A stretch of DNA of 32,000 bases from assembly GCA_048882505.1 (NCBI GenBank), contig JBHLRO010000002.1, positions 360,001 through 392,000 on the forward strand. The letters run 5' to 3'. Position 1 is the stretch's first letter. Every line of letters begins with the position of its first letter. Below are positions 202 through 7,839 of this stretch, piece by piece. The notes beneath the pieces are model-generated. The model had not been told where the DNA came from. It searched no databases and worked only from the letters and a program-made list of their open reading frames with translations. This DNA comes from Candidatus Thorarchaeota archaeon. GTDB lineage: Archaea; Asgardarchaeota; Heimdallarchaeia; Hodarchaeales; Hodarchaeaceae. Made by a program: the position numbers and the translations under genes.

Positions 202-1746
202 TTGATGGAAAATCCGAATAAGAAACAAGAATATCCCTTTTTGGATGAACTTGGAATAGAAGAAGTCAATTCTGGAGCTAGTTTTGGACCAGGAAATTGG
301 ACACCTACTGAGGGCAGAGATCTGTTAGAAGTTATATCTCCAATAGACGGAGGTATCATTGCAAAAGTAGCGCAAGCTAATGATGCTGATTATGAAATAA
401 TTGTTAAAGCCGCCACAGAAAACTTCAGACAGTGGCAAATGCTGCCTGCTCCCAAAAGAGGAGACATTATCCGACAATTTGCGAATGCAATAAGAAAACT
501 AAAAGAGCCCCTTGGCAAATTAATCACCTTAGAAATGGGAAAAATCGTGCAAGAAGGAATGGGTGAAGTTCAAGAAGTAATAGATATCGCTGATTTTGCG
601 GTTGGTCTTTCTAGACAGCTTTATGGTGTTACAATGAAATCTGAAAGGCCAATGCACAGAATGTTTGAGCAATGGCATCCATTAGGAGCTATCGGAATTA
701 TTACGGCATTTAATTTTCCTATGGCGGTATGGTCTTGGAATGCTATGATAGCTGCTGTTGCAGGCGATACCATGATCTGGAAACCTTCCTCAAAAACTCC
801 ATTATGCGCAATTGCCATTCAAAAGATTGCCAACAAAGTTATGGAAAAAAATGGAGTAAAAGGGATTTTCAATCTTTGTATAGGAAAAGGGTCTGAAATC
901 GGTGAAAAACTCATTGGCGATCATAGGATCCCATTGATTTCATTTACGGGGAGTACAAGAATGGGAAGACGTGTTGCTGAGGTCACTGCCAAAAGGTTAG
1001 CTCGTTCTATCTTGGAACTTGGAGGTAACAATGCCATAATCGTTATGGATGATGCAGACTTAGAATTAACCGAAAGAGCTATTATCTTTGGAGCCATAGG
1101 AACAGCGGGACAGAGATGTACGACGACTAGACGCATCATTGCTCATGAAAAGATAGTTGATGAACTTACGGACCGATTAGTCAAAGGTTACCAACAAATC
1201 AAAATCGGAAACCCATTAGAAGACGGGATTTTAATGGGACCTCTGGTAGATGGGTCTGCAGTGGAAGAAATGCAGGTGGCATTAGAAGAACTTCCGAATC
1301 AAGGAGGAACAATCGTGTATGGTGGGAAAAAGCTTGATGGTAAGGGTTATTACGTGACTCCTGCCATTATTAGAGTGAATGATAATGTTCAGCGAGTCTG
1401 CCATGAAACTTTTGCCCCAATCCTATATATAATGCCGTTTAGGAACATTGATCACGCTATTCGACTTCACAATGGGGTACCTCAAGGGCTTTCCTCAGCT
1501 ATCTTCACAAACTCTCTAAAGGCTACAGAACGGTTCTTATCTGCTATGGGAAGTGATTGTGGCATAGCAAATGTAAATATAGGTACATCGGGTGCCGAGA
1601 TCGGAGGGGCCTTTGGTGGAAACTGGGATACAGGTTGGGGCAGAGAAGCTGGATCTGATGCTTGGAAGGGTTATATGCGTCGACAGACCAATACTGTTAA
1701 CTGGAGCGATGAATTACCGTTAGCTCAAGGTATCAGATTTGGATAG
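202..1746 (+). CDS. Aldehyde dehydrogenase, ALDH7/antiquitin-like (alpha-aminoadipate semialdehyde / piperideine-6-carboxylate dehydrogenase family)
   Basis: Motifs ITAFNFPMAVW, WKPS, FTGST, LELGGNNA, GTAGQRCTT (catalytic Cys), ETFAPILY, VNIGTSGAEIGGAFGG and [10 protein letters not shown] are typical of ALDH7. Probable ATG at 205. Confidence 0.93.
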   Translation: MMENPNKKQEYPFLDELGIEEVNSGASFGPGNWTPTEGRDLLEVISPIDGGIIAKVAQANDADYEIIVKAATENFRQWQMLPAPKRGDIIRQFANAIRKLKEPLGKLITLEMGKIVQEGMGEVQEVIDIADFAVGLSRQLYGVTMKSERPMHRMFEQWHPLGAIGIITAFNFPMAVWSWNAMIAAVAGDTMIWKPSSKTPLCAIAIQKIANKVMEKNGVKGIFNLCIGKGSEIGEKLIGDHRIPLISFTGSTRMGRRVAEVTAKRLARSILELGGNNAIIVMDDADLELTERAIIFGAIGTAGQRCTTTRRIIAHEKIVDELTDRLVKGYQQIKIGNPLEDGILMGPLVDGSAVEEMQVALEELPNQGGTIVYGGKKLDGKGYYVTPAIIRVNDNVQRVCHETFAPILYIMPFRNIDHAIRLHNGVPQGLSSAIFTNSLKATERFLSAMGSDCGIANVNIGTSGAEIGGAFGGNWDTGWGREAGSDAWKGYMRRQTNTVNWSDELPLAQGIRFG

Positions 1747-1753
1747 ACAAATC

Positions 1754-3406
1754 CTATTTCAAAGTTTGATCATATAAAGCAGCTATAGGGTCACCTAGCA
1801 TTCTCCTTCTATCTAGTACATCTTTCTTTTTCAAGTTCATATCAAACTTCCATGGGAATTCCCTTTGCGCTAGAGAGAGATGCTTTCCTACGGCACCATC
1901 TAAGTACCTAAAGAATTTGTCAATATTAGACTTTGAGGTAATAACTATAAACCAATGTAGATTCTGGGGGTATCGCTTATCGATTTTGTGATGGATTTGG
2001 GAATGAATCCCTACTTGGTTTTTCAACAGACTTGTTAGGAATTGTACATCTTCTTTGGAAAAGGAGAGAGTGTATAATGCAATTTGATTGCTACTAAAAT
2101 GTCCGTCGCCAATATACCAATGCAATAAAATGTTAGGAGTCATTTTAAAACTGCGAGGAACAATTTTCCCCTTATCATATAGCCTATACCAGTTTTTAAA
2201 GACATTCGTAAACTGTATTGTAGAGTTTGTTGTTAAATATATCATCCTGCTGTTTTTATTGTTTCTACCCTTTCTAAGATACTTATTTACATTGGTGAGA
2301 TATCCCTCCTGCCGAAACAGGCTTTCAAGTAATTTTATCCAATTAACTTCTAGTATTGATTTATGGATCTGAAAATACGCTGTGGGATGATCAGCAATAA
2401 TTTGGCAACTTTGATTAAACTTACGAACCAGATCCGGAAGATTGTCTATTTTCTCGAGTGATTTTATCTTCTGAAAGCCTTTAAGTCTCTCACATGAATC
2501 TTTATAATCTTCGATCCTCACATTATGGATTCTGTAACTTCTATTTCTAGGTATATTCAATCCTAGTGATCCATCACCTAAAAGCTCACCAATAAGAACT
2601 TCATTAAGGAGAGTGCTCATTTCACGATCAAATTTGGTGTTGTTTACGTGTTCTCTTATCTTTCTCATAGAGGCAGAATTCTGAACCTTAATACCACAAT
2701 TTCTCAGCTTCTTGCCAATATTCTTTCTATCTATATTGAATATTCTTTCTAATGATCTTAATGTCTTTAAATGTAAAAATTCTAGTACCAGCAATTCGTC
2801 TAAAACAGTTTGTACCTCTTTTTCACTAACTTTGAGTTTCAATGATATTTGTCTAGGATTTTTACCCTCTAACAGCATTCTTTTGACATATTCGAATTGA
2901 TTAGGTTTTAGCTTTTCAAATTCATTGTTGAAGGGCCATTTATGTATTGATCTTCGGTTCACCCCAAGCCTCTTAGCAATTTCAGTAATACTAAGGCCTT
3001 CGACCTGTAGATTAATCACCATTTTAATTAGGTCATCTTTAATTAAAGAGATCAATCGTTGCTTATTCAATCCCAACTTAAGAGAAATCTCATCAACGGG
3101 TTTTCCTCTATCTAGCAAATTCAATGCACTTTTTAGTAATTCTTCCCTTTCAATGTTCATCCGTTCTTCTAAAGCTGTTGCTTCTAGTGTTTCTTCCTTT
3201 TTACGTTGTGTTTCACCCTTCTCTCTGATTTTAGTTAATCCGTATTCAGTTATCCGTTTTCGGATGGTAGGTCGGGAAGTGTGAAAATATCGGGCAATAG
3301 CAGAAATTGTTTCCCCTTGTTCAAGAAGATAGGTTAGATCTTTTTTATCAATGTGTTTTTTCATGTTTGTGGGCATGTTTGTAGGTACATACGGCCGTTC
3401 ATACAT
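1754..3406 (-). CDS. LAGLIDADG homing endonuclease (two-motif, LAGLIDADG_2-like) with about five N-terminal helix-turn-helix modules
   Basis: LAGLIDADG helices EVLIGELLGDGSL and ILLHWYIGDGHF, plus downstream IALYTLSFSKEDVQFL. N-terminal HTH-like units: GETISAIARYFHTSRPTIRKR, GKPVDEISLKLGLNKQRL, GLSITEIAKRLGVNRRSIHKW, GKNPRQISLKLKVSEKEV, LRSLERIFNIDRKNIGKKL. Confidence 0.88.
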   Translation of the reverse strand: MYERPYVPTNMPTNMKKHIDKKDLTYLLEQGETISAIARYFHTSRPTIRKRITEYGLTKIREKGETQRKKEETLEATALEERMNIEREELLKSALNLLDRGKPVDEISLKLGLNKQRLISLIKDDLIKMVINLQVEGLSITEIAKRLGVNRRSIHKWPFNNEFEKLKPNQFEYVKRMLLEGKNPRQISLKLKVSEKEVQTVLDELLVLEFLHLKTLRSLERIFNIDRKNIGKKLRNCGIKVQNSASMRKIREHVNNTKFDREMSTLLNEVLIGELLGDGSLGLNIPRNRSYRIHNVRIEDYKDSCERLKGFQKIKSLEKIDNLPDLVRKFNQSCQIIADHPTAYFQIHKSILEVNWIKLLESLFRQEGYLTNVNKYLRKGRNNKNSRMIYLTTNSTIQFTNVFKNWYRLYDKGKIVPRSFKMTPNILLHWYIGDGHFSSNQIALYTLSFSKEDVQFLTSLLKNQVGIHSQIHHKIDKRYPQNLHWFIVITSKSNIDKFFRYLDGAVGKHLSLAQREFPWKFDMNLKKKDVLDRRRMLGDPIAALYDQTLK

Positions 3407-3427
3407 TAAGAATCTTTAGCTCTCTGA

Positions 3428-3434
3428 TATAAAA
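3428..3434 (-). promoter_or_regulatory. Candidate archaeal TATA box for the endonuclease gene
   Basis: TTTTATA on the minus strand 22-28 nt upstream of the ATG at 3406. No clear BRE. Confidence 0.3.
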
Positions 3435-3527
3435 GAAAAAGTACGTTTTCACTCTATAAAAAGGTTCTTTGATGGAGATCGTGTTGAATAGACTTGAATG
3501 CTAGTAAGACTATGAAATAAAAGAACG

Positions 3528-3653
3528 AAAGAGACCGGAGGAGGTAGAGAAGCGGGTTCTGACGCTTGGAAGGGTTATATGCGTCGACGAACCAATACTA
3601 TTAATTGGAGTGATGAACTGCCGTTAGCACAGGGGATTAAATTTGGCTCATAA
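3528..3653 (+). pseudogene. Orphaned (probably original) 3' end of the ALDH7-type gene
   Basis: Translates to [41 protein letters not shown] with no start codon. A 25-nt stretch is identical between 3564-3588 and 1660-1684; most other differences are synonymous. Confidence 0.9.
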
Positions 3654-3773
3654 AGATAAGATGACCTTAAAATAACCCTACCCACCTAAGATGAATTATC
3701 TGTTCCCAAGAAGGAGAGCTTTTCGGGGCTACAATAATTTATACAAGTTGACATCGCATCTTATGCCCAAAAG

Positions 3774-5213
3774 GTGATTGATGTGAAAATCCTGTTAGCT
3801 GGAGAATGGATTGATACAAGCGAGAAGATAGATGTTTTCGATCCTTATGATGGTTCAGTTATCGATACAGTCCCGAGAGTTACAGTTAAGGATGTGCAAA
3901 AGGCTATTGAAAACGCAGTAAAGGGATATCAAATATGTAGAGCGTTACCCACACATAAACGAATGGAAATCCTGGAAAAAACGGCTCTTTACGTTAAGGA
4001 TAATTTTGAAGATTTTAGTGAAACCATTGCGAGAGAAGGTTCGAAAACCATTCGTGAGGCCCGAAAAGAGGTAGCTCGATGTATAAATACTCTAAAAGTT
4101 TCCGCAGAAGAAACTCGTCGGTTATTAGGGGAGACTATCCCATTTGACAGTTTTCCAGGAGCAGAAAACAAGGTAGGATATTATTATCGCTTTCCAATTG
4201 GCCCTATTGCCTGTATAACACCATTTAATGATCCCCTTAATTTGGTGGCCCACAAAATTGGTCCAGCAATTGCCGGAGGAAACTCCGTTATACTCAAGCC
4301 CGCGACGATGACTCCTTTATCTGCCATAAAACTCGTAAAGGGATTTTTGGCGGCCGGATTACCCAAAGAAATCATCAATATTGTCACTGGATTTGGTTCA
4401 GAAATCGGTGATTCGCTCGTGAGCGATGATCGAATACGAATGATTAGTTTTACGGGTGGCGTTAACGCCGCAAAGCAAATCCTTAAGCTTGCAGGTCTAA
4501 AAAAAGTTGGAATGGAGCTCGGGTCTAATAGTCCTGTCATTATTTGGCATGATGCAGATCTGGAATACGCGACTGAAAGCTGTGTGTCAGGAGCCTTTTG
4601 GGCTGCTGGCCAGAATTGTATAGGTGTTCAACGTCTCCTTGTACATGATTCCGTCTACGGAGAATTCGTATCCAAATTTACGGAACGGACTGAGAAATAT
4701 AAAATTGGAAATAAATTGGAAGAGGATTGTGATATGGGGCCCATGATAAACGAAACCGAGGCCAAACGCATTGAAACCTGGGTAAATGAAGCTGTTGAAA
4801 AAGGAGCAAGGATTTTACTTGGTGGACACCGGGACGGGGCACTATTTGAACCGACAATTCTGGAAAACGTGACCAAAGAAATGACTTTGGATTGTGATGA
4901 AGTATTTGCTCCTGTTGTTAGTTTTTATAGGATATCTTCCTTTGAAGAGGCAATTGAGGAGGCTAACAAAGTGAATTATGGATTACATGCTGCTATATTT
5001 ACTCAGGATATTGATCTAGCATTTAAAGCAATCCATAAATTGGAATGTGGTGGAGTAATTGTCAACGAGAGTACTGATTATAGGTTGGATTCTATGCCTT
5101 TCGGAGGAATCAAGAATTCAGGACTAGGTCGGGAAGGAATAAAATTTGCACTGATGGAGATGACAGAGCCAAAGGTAGTATGTTTCAATTTGAAGAACCC
5201 TCCCCTAGCTTGA
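3774..5213 (+). CDS. NAD(P)-dependent aldehyde dehydrogenase (lactaldehyde dehydrogenase / GAPN-like archaeal group)
   Basis: Motifs ITPFNDPLNL, LKPA, FTGG, MELGSNSP, AGQNCIG, EVFAPV and PFGGIKNSGLGREG. Confidence 0.92.
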   Translation: MIDVKILLAGEWIDTSEKIDVFDPYDGSVIDTVPRVTVKDVQKAIENAVKGYQICRALPTHKRMEILEKTALYVKDNFEDFSETIAREGSKTIREARKEVARCINTLKVSAEETRRLLGETIPFDSFPGAENKVGYYYRFPIGPIACITPFNDPLNLVAHKIGPAIAGGNSVILKPATMTPLSAIKLVKGFLAAGLPKEIINIVTGFGSEIGDSLVSDDRIRMISFTGGVNAAKQILKLAGLKKVGMELGSNSPVIIWHDADLEYATESCVSGAFWAAGQNCIGVQRLLVHDSVYGEFVSKFTERTEKYKIGNKLEEDCDMGPMINETEAKRIETWVNEAVEKGARILLGGHRDGALFEPTILENVTKEMTLDCDEVFAPVVSFYRISSFEEAIEEANKVNYGLHAAIFTQDIDLAFKAIHKLECGGVIVNESTDYRLDSMPFGGIKNSGLGREGIKFALMEMTEPKVVCFNLKNPPLA

Positions 5214-5220
5214 ATTAATC

Positions 5221-6003
5221 TTATTGTCTAGATAGCAGTTTATTTTCTCTTTTGAATCCGAATATTTTTCTCCAAATCCACTTTATGGGATCGTAGTACC
5301 TGTCTGCGACTCTTTCTTTCAAGGGAATTATCGCATTATCAGTGATTTGGATATTTTCAGGACAAACTTCGGTACAACACTTTGTAATATTACAATATCC
5401 GATGCCAAACTCGTTTTTTACCGCTGCCGCTCTATCTTCGATATCTAGAGGATGCATATCCAAATTCGCCAAGCGAAGAAGAAATCTCGGGCCTACAAAT
5501 TCCTCGAATTTCTGGTGAGTTCTGAGAACATGGCATACATCCTGACAAAGATAGCATTCGATGCATTTTCGAAACTCCTGTATTCTATCAACATCTTCTT
5601 GCATTATACGAGGTTTTTTGATTTCTGGAAATGCCAGAGGAGGGATTTTTCGATTGACTTCATAATTCCAAGAGACATCGGTGACAAGGTCCTTAATCAA
5701 GGGGAACGCAGCCATTGGTTTTACGATTATGGGTTCAGTTGGGTCATAATCTGAAAGCCGAGTCATACACATTAATTTGGGCAGTCCATTAATCTCAGCC
5801 GAGCAGGAACCACATTTTCCAGCTTTACAATTCCAACGAACTGCCAAATCTTTAGCATGTAACGCCTGAACAGCATGTACTGCATCAAGAACCACGGAGC
5901 CAGGTTCAAGGTCAACATCAAACTCCTCCATGCGGATAGCCTCCTTGGTTTCACCCCTTTGAATGATTAATTTTGCCTTGTGCAATTGTGACTTATTCTG
6001 CAA
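5221..6003 (-). CDS. sdhB: Succinate dehydrogenase/fumarate reductase iron-sulfur subunit (Sdh1 / Rv0247c-like)
   Basis: Fe-S motifs RWNCKAGKCGSC...LMC, CIECYLCQDVC and CNITKCCTEVCP. Confidence 0.92.
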   Translation of the reverse strand: MQNKSQLHKAKLIIQRGETKEAIRMEEFDVDLEPGSVVLDAVHAVQALHAKDLAVRWNCKAGKCGSCSAEINGLPKLMCMTRLSDYDPTEPIIVKPMAAFPLIKDLVTDVSWNYEVNRKIPPLAFPEIKKPRIMQEDVDRIQEFRKCIECYLCQDVCHVLRTHQKFEEFVGPRFLLRLANLDMHPLDIEDRAAAVKNEFGIGYCNITKCCTEVCPENIQITDNAIIPLKERVADRYYDPIKWIWRKIFGFKRENKLLSRQ

Positions 6004-6006
6004 ACT

Positions 6007-7839
6007 TCAAACCTCTTGCTCGATTAGTTCCTTTAAATCGTCTGAGACCTGGGGATATTTCTCATGAGCAACTTCAAGGGTTCCATCGTCAGCTTTTTTT
6101 AGTACAATGAGCAAATCTGTCAAATCTGGATTGGATTCCGGATAATCAACTCTTGTGTGCGCGCCCCTGCTTTCTTTCCTCTCTAAAGCCCCTCTTGCTA
6201 TTGTAATACTAGTAATGAGCATATGGTGAAGATCAATACATAAATGCCAGTTGGGATTGTATTTTCTTCCTCCTTCGAGCACGCCCACATTATTTATTTT
6301 CTTGGATATTTCTTCTAATTTGTTAATTCCAGCTTTAATGTTCTCCTCACTGCGAGCAATTCCAATGTGCTCTTCCATTATATCTTTAAGCTCATCATGA
6401 AGTTTATATGGGTCTTCAGTTCGGTTTGGATCAAAATACATAAGAATCTGATTAATTGCCTCCATCAATCTAGTTTTCGATACGGTAGACTCTTTAGTTA
6501 TCGAAGACGTGTATTCTGCCGCAGCTTCTCCTGCTAACGCACCAAAGACAAGTAAATCCGATAAAGAGTTTCCACCCAGTCTGTTTGCACCATGTAAACC
6601 GCTTGCAGCTTCGCCCGCGGCATACAATCCTGTTATTGAAGTTTTCTGCGTAAATGGATCCACTCTAATACCTCCCATAAAATAATGGCAAGTAGGCCCA
6701 ACCTCCATGGGTTCCTTTGTTATATCTAATTGAGCCAGAGTAAGGAATTGATGATGCATCGAGGGGAGTTTTTTGAGGATTTCTTCTCTAGATTTCCTTG
6801 AAGCAATATCCAGAAAAACGCCTCCATGAGGAGAACCTCTTCCTGCCTTTACCTCGGACATAATGGCCCTCGCGACCACGTCCCTGGTTAATAATTCAGG
6901 AGGACGTCTTGCTGAATTGTCCCCCATGCCCCATCTTTCAGCCTCTTCTTCAGTATCCGCATAATCGTCTTTGAAAAACTTGGGTATATAGTTGAACATA
7001 AACCTCTCTCCTTTATTATTGACAAGTACACCTCCTTCCCCTCGGACTCCTTCAGTTACCAGAATTCCCGCAACACTAGAAGGGAAAAGCATTCCTGTTG
7101 GATGAAACTGGACAAACTCCATGTCAACTAATTCAGCGCCCGCATCATAGGCGAGTCCAAAACCATCGCCAGTATATTCCCACGAATTAGAGGTTACTCG
7201 ATAGCATTTGCCCATCCCTCCTGTTGCAATTATTGCTGCATTCACCTCAAACAACATTAGTTTTCCATCTTGACGATTATAGCCGAACACACCTACAACT
7301 TTCCCTTCCTCGACAATTATTTGAGTCACTGTACATTCCATGTATATTTTGATATTCTTCTGGTGGATGACCTTGTTTTGTAGAGTTCTGATGATTTCAA
7401 GTCCTGTTCGGTCACCAACATGGGCCAAGCGTTGGAAAGTATGTCCTCCAAAATGTCTTTGGCTTATTTTTCCAGTTTTTGTACGATCAAACACGGCCCC
7501 CCATTTTTCCAGCTCTTTCACTCTTTGAGGAGCTAATTGACCATGTAATCTTGCCATCCTCCAGTCACTATGCAGTTTCCCTCCTCTCATTGTGTCTCTG
7601 AAATGGATCTTCCAGTTATCGTTTGGATCTGCATCTCCGAGCGCGGCCGCAATCCCTCCTTCTGCCATTACGGTATGGGCCTTGCCCAATAAGGATTTGC
7701 AAACCACTCCGACACTGAGTTTTTTTTCTGCAGCTCCGATTGCTGCTCTTAGTCCAGCTCCTCCTGCCCCGATGATTAAGATATCGTGATGAAATCTCTC
7801 TAAATTGTCGAGTTCGTCTTGCATATTGATTTCAAACAT
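6007..7839 (-). CDS. sdhA: Succinate dehydrogenase/fumarate reductase flavoprotein subunit (Sdh1 / Rv0248c-like)
   Basis: Motifs IIGAGGAGLRAA, KAHTVMAEGG (FAD-binding His), QFHPTG, TEGVRGEGG, HYFMGG, HGANRLGGNSL and ESRGAH. Confidence 0.95.
   Translation of the reverse strand: MFEINMQDELDNLERFHHDILIIGAGGAGLRAAIGAAEKKLSVGVVCKSLLGKAHTVMAEGGIAAALGDADPNDNWKIHFRDTMRGGKLHSDWRMARLHGQLAPQRVKELEKWGAVFDRTKTGKISQRHFGGHTFQRLAHVGDRTGLEIIRTLQNKVIHQKNIKIYMECTVTQIIVEEGKVVGVFGYNRQDGKLMLFEVNAAIIATGGMGKCYRVTSNSWEYTGDGFGLAYDAGAELVDMEFVQFHPTGMLFPSSVAGILVTEGVRGEGGVLVNNKGERFMFNYIPKFFKDDYADTEEEAERWGMGDNSARRPPELLTRDVVARAIMSEVKAGRGSPHGGVFLDIASRKSREEILKKLPSMHHQFLTLAQLDITKEPMEVGPTCHYFMGGIRVDPFTQKTSITGLYAAGEAASGLHGANRLGGNSLSDLLVFGALAGEAAAEYTSSITKESTVSKTRLMEAINQILMYFDPNRTEDPYKLHDELKDIMEEHIGIARSEENIKAGINKLEEISKKINNVGVLEGGRKYNPNWHLCIDLHHMLITSITIARGALERKESRGAHTRVDYPESNPDLTDLLIVLKKADDGTLEVAHEKYPQVSDDLKELIEQEV

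Follow-up and report, generated by a model that had tools for sequence, protein, structure and literature searches.

A mobile homing-endonuclease cassette with a replacement gene end, probably inserted in the ALDH7-type gene of a Heimdall-type Asgard archaeon

Endonuclease genes that bring along a spare end of the gene they invade are known from fungal mitochondria, where the elements termed mORFs carry a foreign gene C-terminus in atp6 of Allomyces macrogynus, in atp6, atp9, cox2, and nad3 of a Glomus sp., in atp9 of Rhizopus oryzae, and in cox2 of Mortierella verticillata (PMC3630166). Within a mORF, an endonuclease open reading frame (ORF), mostly of the LAGLIDADG type, separates the inserted, expressed C-terminus from the displaced native one; the latter clusters with the host lineage, the two copies differ largely by synonymous changes, and it has been proposed that ORF-less alleles are cleaved and then repaired from an occupied allele (PMC3630166). 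The present analysis concerns a comparable arrangement in a 32,000-nt stretch of DNA (the window) from Candidatus Thorarchaeota archaeon (Asgardarchaeota; Heimdallarchaeia; Hodarchaeales; Hodarchaeaceae; assembly GCA_048882505.1, contig JBHLRO010000002.1, positions 360,001 to 392,000 of the forward strand), in which positions 1621..3524 are in all likelihood a mobile homing-endonuclease cassette that is inserted in an ALDH7-type aldehyde dehydrogenase (ALDH) gene and carries a replacement for the end of that gene. The cassette would comprise a substitute 3' end (41 codons and a stop), an antisense gene for an I-SceI-like endonuclease with a helix-turn-helix (HTH) array, and the upstream region of that gene, inserted between the GG and (T/E)K codons of the conserved motif GG-x-K-x-T/S-G-x-G-R-E, and the original host 3' end would have been left stranded behind it as an untranslatable relic.

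As in mORFs, the endonuclease gene is flanked by an in-frame inserted gene end on one side and a displaced native end on the other, and the further mORF feature of a native end that goes with the host lineage beside a divergent inserted end is clear in the radical-SAM cassettes formed by endonucleases of the same clade (see below). Unlike mORFs, it lies in an archaeal chromosome rather than an organelle, and its host gene encodes a soluble metabolic enzyme rather than a component of the respiratory chain. The endonuclease gene is antisense, convergent, and equipped with its own upstream region, whereas the fungal ORFs are on the same strand and often in frame; its product has a long N-terminal HTH array; and strong recoding of the carried end is limited to the 21 nt that adjoin the junction, where an otherwise invariant lysine is changed. 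The antisense orientation of the ORF and the archaeal genome therefore place the cassette outside the fungal mORF family.

A second precedent is the "intronless homing" of the free-standing seg and mob endonucleases of T4-like phages, which is independent of introns and inteins; the endonuclease genes adjoin a conserved gene, and break repair co-converts the flanks. Most relatives of the window's endonuclease resemble seg and mob genes in standing relic-free and tail to tail behind the genes for pyruvate phosphate dikinase (PPDK) or S-adenosylhomocysteine hydrolase (AdoHcyase). The insertion in the window differs from them in lying inside a coding sequence, where it has left a duplicated gene end, in encoding a LAGLIDADG rather than a GIY-YIG or HNH nuclease, and in residing in a cellular chromosome rather than a phage. 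The nearest structural relatives, I-SceI and I-WcaI, are monomeric double-motif LAGLIDADG enzymes of group I introns in yeast mitochondrial rRNA genes. The window's protein shares with them (1r7m, 6x1j) the fold (TM score by target of 0.67–0.72), the family PF03161, and two LAGLIDADG helices that bear acidic residues, and differs in sequence (15–18% identity), in not being intron-encoded, in its ~250 extra N-terminal HTH residues, and in its archaeal host. Archaeal LAGLIDADG inteins and introns (PI-PfuI, I-DmoI, I-Tsp061I) target highly conserved motifs of conserved genes (PMC6125680). Their nuclease folds are related to that of the window's protein (fold-match ranks 6–12); unlike in these elements, host function would here be kept at the DNA level by the carried gene end, with no RNA or protein splicing. 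Literature searches for the arrangement in archaea, Asgard archaea included, returned only the fungal-mitochondrial cases and unrelated Asgard mobile elements; in the literature searched, homing endonucleases of cellular chromosomes ride in introns or inteins, and here harmlessness would come from a spare gene end.

The source genome is a metagenome-assembled genome (MAG) of 4.3 Mb in 83 contigs with 3.7% contamination, and the locus lies on a contig of ~450 kb. The ALDH7-type ORF occupies 202..1746 on the plus strand; its native body (202..1620; PF00171, E 2.3e-132) runs up to the GG codons preceding the insertion point, and the carried, in-use 3' end (1621..1746; 41 codons and a stop, NWDTGWGREAG...GIRFG*) continues it in frame and is duplicated at 3525..3653. 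A 7-nt spacer (1747..1753) separates two convergent stop codons, the second of which belongs to the free-standing LAGLIDADG endonuclease gene (1754..3406, minus strand, 550 aa), recognized by Pfam matches and fold. This gene is followed by its own upstream region of 118 nt (3407..3524, minus strand), which contains TATA-like boxes, and then by the relic of the native ALDH7 3' end (3525..3653, plus strand; 42 codons and a stop, TKETGGG...GIKFGS*), which has no start codon and is preceded by an in-frame stop just upstream. When the in-use tail was queried against the locus, the relic was matched at E 4.7e-23 (tblastn), a similarity therefore far beyond chance. The original prediction for this DNA, that the last ~41 codons of the ALDH7 gene are present twice, that the copies differ mostly at third codon positions, and that a free-standing LAGLIDADG gene fills the gap between them with only 7 nt and ~120 nt to spare, was thus borne out; the second copy is start-less as proposed and begins one codon earlier (at 3525) than had been written, and the position of the endonuclease gene on the minus strand is a point that the prediction did not contain.

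The host gene is predicted, from an equivalog-level match, to encode an L-piperidine-6-carboxylate/aminoadipate-semialdehyde dehydrogenase of the ALDH7 type (NF050084, 762.3 bits against a cutoff of 730, residues 45–513), and the hybrid protein clears this cutoff even with the carried tail. An empty allele directly upstream of the second ALDH gene had been expected in relatives, and one is present in a genome of the same genus (G016), whose ALDH7 ortholog is 86% identical to that of the window at the amino acid level and reads AFGG|TKETGGG...GIKFG*; a spacer of 136 nt separates it from the ortholog of the second ALDH, which holds the same neighbor position in both genomes. No endonuclease is present at the G016 ALDH7 locus and no homologue was found in the G016 genome; the upstream region of the window's endonuclease gene likewise has no counterpart in this empty allele. 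Alignment of the relic with G016 begins at the Thr codon, and joining 1620 to 3525 restores the exact in-frame reading GAEIGGAFGG|TKETGGG, so that the inserted element can be delimited to 1621..3524 (1,904 nt). The locus is therefore polymorphic for presence and absence at one precise site, occupied in the window and empty in the congener, with identical synteny. Other ALDH7 orthologs (G026, G030, G034) read EKETGGG or HKDTGNG at this point. Among the 120 best ALDH7-tail matches retrieved from 5.8 billion proteins, 116 read EK(D/E)TGGG, one reads TKETGGG (G016's own), and NWDTGWG occurs only in the window's protein; the Lys of (E/T)K(D/E)TG(G/S/W)G is invariant in the other 119 retrieved tails and is Trp in the window's. 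That NWDTGWG might be the ancestral form, a possibility that would have undone the prediction, does not hold, as it is absent from the endonuclease-free relatives.

Between the in-use tail and the relic there are 27 differences in 123 nt, of which 19 fall at third codon positions, and the carried tail preserves 34 of the 41 residues of the native tail, with differences that are mostly synonymous. The mismatches crowd at the junction: 11 of 21 nt differ in codons 1–7, a patch (1621..1641) in which NWDTGWG replaces TKETGGG, vs. 16 of 102 nt over the remaining 34 codons (Fisher p 7e-4), and the wobble position differs in all seven of these codons vs. 12 of the 34 beyond (p 0.002). Four amino acid changes fall within the first seven carried codons. 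Compared with G016 over these codons, the relic agrees at 19 of 21 nt and the in-use copy at 10 of 21; in the 30 nt that precede the junction, there is hardly any change from the G016 sequence. The recoded patch would represent the downstream half of the endonuclease recognition site, altered such that occupied alleles are not cut. In the relic, five changes are private, four of them synonymous and one non-synonymous, and no frameshift has occurred; with so few private changes and an unbroken frame, the relic has therefore not been non-coding for long. At its end, the relic reads ...GGC TCA TAA (G S stop; 3645..3653) vs. ...GGT TAA in G016, and the native stop of the relic thus seems to have been lost by a TAA-to-TCA change and replaced by the following TAA, one of the few signs of decay.

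Related endonucleases occur at other genes, and the search of these homologues for neighboring duplicated gene ends, which had been suggested as a check, yielded three loci. At E <= 1e-3 the clade comprises 895 representatives, of which 28 remain at E <= 1e-30, the nearest with 36% identity; within the phylum it is confined to the window's class, where its distribution is patchy (14 of 400 genomes, with at most two matches per genome), and its members adjoin highly conserved genes. A 3'-end cassette is present in G080:C304 (L038/L081), where, in L038 coordinates, the PPDK gene lies at 2410..3816 (minus strand), the homing endonuclease gene (HEG) at 1273..2370 (plus strand), and a relic at 934..1098 (minus strand). 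This relic corresponds to 55 PPDK codons with 85% amino acid identity (E 3.5e-31) and 33 of 165 nt different, 22 of these at third positions; the HEG is antisense, and the junction falls directly after the codon for the catalytic Cys of PPDK (C|GEQGGDP). Two 5'-end cassettes have the endonuclease gene head to tail in front of a radical-SAM gene, one in the window's genus (G007:C52, L034; orphan 645..905, HEG 1105..2469, radical-SAM gene 2471..3505) and one in a metagenome (L083; orphan 2187..2438, HEG 3001..4299, radical-SAM gene 4342..5367). In both, an orphan 5' end of 84–87 codons is followed by the endonuclease gene and then by a complete radical-SAM gene, with the junction just before the CxxxCxxC motif. 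The carried ends of the two loci are 83% identical to each other and the relics 74%, whereas carried ends and relics are only 54–62% identical; since the carried ends cluster apart from the relics, the carried end travels with the endonuclease.

The remaining copies are arranged differently. Copies stand tail to tail behind PPDK at nine loci and behind AdoHcyase in three congeners, and one metagenome contig each holds a tail-to-tail copy behind an EF-1alpha gene (L029, 1055..1333, minus strand) and behind the gene for the A subunit of an A-type ATPase (L032, 1351..2712, minus strand), the latter gene being a classic intein host; both of these contigs end at the endonuclease start, beyond which there is no flank that could show relics. 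No relic of a host-gene end was found behind AdoHcyase (L035–L037) or at eight of the nine PPDK loci, nor was a duplicated gene end found at the soil-metagenome homologue L022. In genus g8, homology between genomes with the HEG (HEG+) and without it (HEG-) runs through the PPDK stop codon and breaks ~34 nt later, and the g8 copies are therefore plain intergenic insertions.

Evidence on the spread of the window's element comes from four public sequencing runs in which the stretch is present, no RNA run being listed among them, namely the probable source, two from the same study, and one (X2) from another study. In the probable source sample a single 17-kb contig spans the whole arrangement; elsewhere, the 5' junction is bridged by contigs of X4 (1310..2045) and X2 (1404..2032) and the 3' junction by a contig of X4 (3204..3602), and these bridging contigs from other samples argue against mis-assembly. 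The 5'-bridging contig of X4 has 10 differences, all at 1340..1608, in 311 host nt and none in 425 nt of the element (p 1.7e-4); similarly, that of X2 has five differences at 1428..1608 and none in 412 element nt (p 4.7e-3), five differing positions being common to the two contigs. Over all X2 contigs, nine differences in 542 host nt stand against none in 1,717 element nt (p 2.5e-6), with no X2 cover at 3568..3781. Beyond the right end of the element, a single contig difference is listed, which falls within the relic (3536). Recent homing or transfer would be expected to leave an element that is identical in host backgrounds 2–3% apart and whose identity sets in no more than 13 nt from the junction, and the pattern points to a recent spread of the element. 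The joint of an empty allele was not seen in contigs of the four runs, which says nothing about its absence. A further X2 contig of 300 nt (1219..1515), which stops short of the junction, has 25 differences from the window (~8%); the X2 sample therefore also contains another ALDH7 lineage, which is more distant.

Several observations weigh against reading 1621..3524 as a cassette of this kind. No second ALDH7-borne copy of the endonuclease was found, and no homologue exceeds 36–37% identity. Most copies of the clade are intergenic, behind PPDK or AdoHcyase, and without a relic, and no recoding at the PPDK motif CGEQGGDP was found that separates HEG+ from HEG- genes. The population evidence consists of contigs at low depth (~4–5x) and not of raw reads. 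No donor allele with NWDTGWG was found among the ALDH7-tail homologues, and because the carried end replaces the invariant Lys, the hybrid ALDH7 may be impaired. Over codons 8–41, identity is 84% between the in-use copy and the relic, 79% between the in-use copy and G016, and 82% between the relic and G016; with all three pairs at 79–84%, the ALDH7 locus alone favors, but does not prove, that the carried tail is foreign and stems from a diverged allele. The derivation of the in-use copy from a diverged allele, as first proposed, thus stands in part: the relic-private changes (four synonymous, one not) and the identity of the element across haplotypes agree with it, and codons 8–41 are no more foreign than those of the congener.

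The encoded 550-aa protein consists of an array of HTH modules at residues ~1–250 and an I-SceI-like double-motif LAGLIDADG domain at ~250–550, with Pfam matches to LAGLIDADG_2, LAGLIDADG_3, HTH_23, HTH_28, and NUMOD1; PF03161 was matched at E 2e-14 (54.3 bits against a cutoff of 25) and PF14528 at 30.9 against a cutoff of 22.5. Both catalytic residues are present, Asp278 in the first LAGLIDADG motif (IGELLGDG, 2570..2593, minus strand), which is conserved in the homologue alignments, and Asp434 in the second (ILLHWYIGDG, 2102..2131, minus strand); across 37 homologues the second Asp is invariant and the first nearly so. An AlphaFold2 model of residues 250–550, built from an alignment of these 37 homologues, reached a pLDDT of 93.6 and a pTM of 0.90 and matches the pseudo-dimeric alpha-beta-beta-alpha-beta-beta-alpha LAGLIDADG fold. 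Its best Foldseek matches in the PDB are I-SceI (1r7m, E 1.3e-10) and I-WcaI, followed by inteins, I-DmoI, and I-OnuI, whereas a PDB sequence search with the whole 550-aa protein gave only a chance-level HTH match. With both Asp residues, both helices, and the fold intact, the nuclease looks active.

The best surviving alternative is that the cassette was inserted as proposed and that its protein no longer cuts, having become, for example, a DNA-binding regulator, so that the locus is now a static fossil. Such a fate has a parallel in WhiA, a regulator derived from a LAGLIDADG ancestor, and WhiA structures are among the fold matches of the window's protein (ranks 9, 13, and 38). An HTH array makes up the ~250 N-terminal residues, no second copy of the gene is present in the 4.3-Mb genome, and even the nearest homologue shares just 36% identity, all of which would suit such a fate. 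A loss of cutting fits poorly with the intact catalytic Asp residues and LAGLIDADG helices, with top fold matches (I-SceI and I-WcaI) that are active enzymes, with an element identical up to the junction across haplotypes 2–3% apart, which indicates recent transfer, and with a relic that has barely decayed; an old scar is accordingly considered unlikely.

Less probable still is a local duplication, in which ordinary recombination or slippage would have copied the ALDH7 3' end, the endonuclease gene would have landed between the copies later by chance, and the in-use copy would have drifted. The lack of a donor allele among the homologues found and the fact that codons 8–41 of the in-use copy are nearest to the relic (84%) are what such a history would leave behind. 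It would not lead one to expect a duplication whose boundary falls precisely at both ends of the insert, or recoding that is far heavier in the 21 nt nearest the junction than elsewhere in the tail and that uniquely changes the invariant Lys. In addition, related endonucleases show the same arrangement at PPDK and at a radical-SAM gene, and in the latter the carried ends of two genomes cluster apart from the relics; independent drift after a chance landing is for these reasons a very improbable account.

Splicing is the next explanation to be weighed, with a 1.9-kb segment removed as a bulge-helix-bulge (BHB) or self-splicing intron, the relic serving as the true last exon, and the NWDTGWG tail remaining unused. 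Excision of 1621..3524 does restore the GG|TKETGGG frame exactly. Pairing across the junctions is, in contrast, no better than in shuffled sequences (z -0.13), and there is no 4-bp central helix flanked by bulges; an Rfam scan of 1400..3900 at E <= 1 found no group I, group II, or other family except for one chance-level snoRNA match. The endonuclease gene and the host gene run in opposite directions, which sets the former apart from intron-borne ORFs, and the retention of 34 of 41 residues in the carried tail would be unexpected for intron sequence. In the absence of a ribozyme core or BHB motif, and with spacers of 7 nt and 118 nt around the endonuclease gene, the earlier view that no room is left for an intron core was upheld, and an intron is highly improbable. 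An intein was also considered and rejected, as had been anticipated, because the endonuclease gene is encoded on the strand opposite to the host ORF; the latter stops at 1746, and splicing blocks are lacking. An assembly artefact, in which the tails of two strains and an unrelated endonuclease contig were misjoined, has in its favor only the nature of the genome, a MAG in 83 contigs at 3.7% contamination, and is scarcely credible given the independent X4 and X2 contigs across the 5' junction, the X4 contig across the 3' junction, the 17-kb contig across everything in the probable source sample, and the same architecture in other genomes at other genes, and the check for mis-assembly brought no refutation.

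If the element is a homing cassette, cassette-free ALDH7 alleles would be cut within the coding sequence ...GGAFGG|TKETGGG..., and the break would be repaired from an occupied allele with the ALDH7 body and the relic or native 3' end as homology arms, by which the cassette would be copied in. Alternatively, the first insertion may have arisen by one-sided invasion, with an illegitimate join at the break on the right; a GA microhomology is visible at both junctions. Occupied alleles would be immune to re-cutting because the target is split and its downstream half heavily recoded (NWDTGWG), and the host would retain a full-length ALDH7 without splicing. The endonuclease gene is probably transcribed from 3407..3524, a putative promoter for a leaderless or short-leader mRNA, given the TATA-like boxes TTTTATAT at 3425..3432 and TTTATA at 3456..3461 (minus-strand reading); sigma-70 and terminator scans were uninformative for an archaeal host. 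Empty-site cleavage, immunity by recoding, the promoter, and hybrid ALDH7 activity are inferred.

A wider proposition, given about an even chance of being correct, is that Heimdall-type Asgard archaea harbor an undescribed and currently active clade of HTH-array/I-SceI-like endonucleases, which invades the catalytic-motif codons of central metabolic genes without introns or inteins, by means of imported gene ends, on either side of the gene and in either orientation. Its targets would be the GG-x-K motif of ALDH7, the catalytic Cys of PPDK, and the radical-SAM CxxxCxxC motif. If true, this would constitute a chromosomal route for the segment-wise horizontal replacement of conserved genes, and selection for immunity could override an otherwise invariant residue, as in the change from Lys to Trp in ALDH7. 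One clade at three host genes, with evidence of recent spread, would broaden the known lifestyle of homing endonucleases and offer a concrete mechanism for mosaic genes with a foreign segment inside a conserved gene. For annotation, short orphan gene ends beside LAGLIDADG genes may be a warning of insertion scars. The occupied loci may also serve as a natural experiment on how far a conserved enzyme motif can be recoded to escape a nuclease, and the protein as a new long-site nuclease scaffold with an HTH array, the target of which is predictable from the empty allele.

Beyond the relic, the native intergenic spacer between ALDH7 and the second ALDH gene (3654..3773, 120 nt) aligns patchily with the 136-nt spacer of G016, and the second ALDH gene itself (3774..5213, plus strand; PF00171, E 4e-157), which is lactaldehyde-dehydrogenase-like, lies outside the element and serves as a synteny anchor.

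Some further observations concern PPDK genes and the surroundings of the clade. Orphan fragments of PPDK 3' ends were found in pairs far from the main PPDK gene in L078 (G037:C110; 3845..4159 and 2653..2802) and in L080 (G033:C19; 4002..4316 and 715..1018), with no endonuclease homologue near them. In each pair, the longer fragment begins close to residue 796 at the conserved motif ...Q-M-x-L-G-F-S-R-D-D, and the fragments may be scars of another homing element aimed at a different PPDK site. In L024 (932..4735, plus strand) and L043 (G074), the PPDK-associated endonuclease domain forms the C-terminus of a very long ORF (1,267 aa in L024), the N-terminal part of which is membrane-protein-like, through either a fusion or a read-through annotation. 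Finally, in L030 a 525-aa homologue (4001..5578, plus strand) and a convergent TnpB/IS605 OrfB gene (5580..6737, minus strand) lie 2 nt apart with AdoHcyase just beyond, such that two mobile elements are stacked behind one conserved gene.

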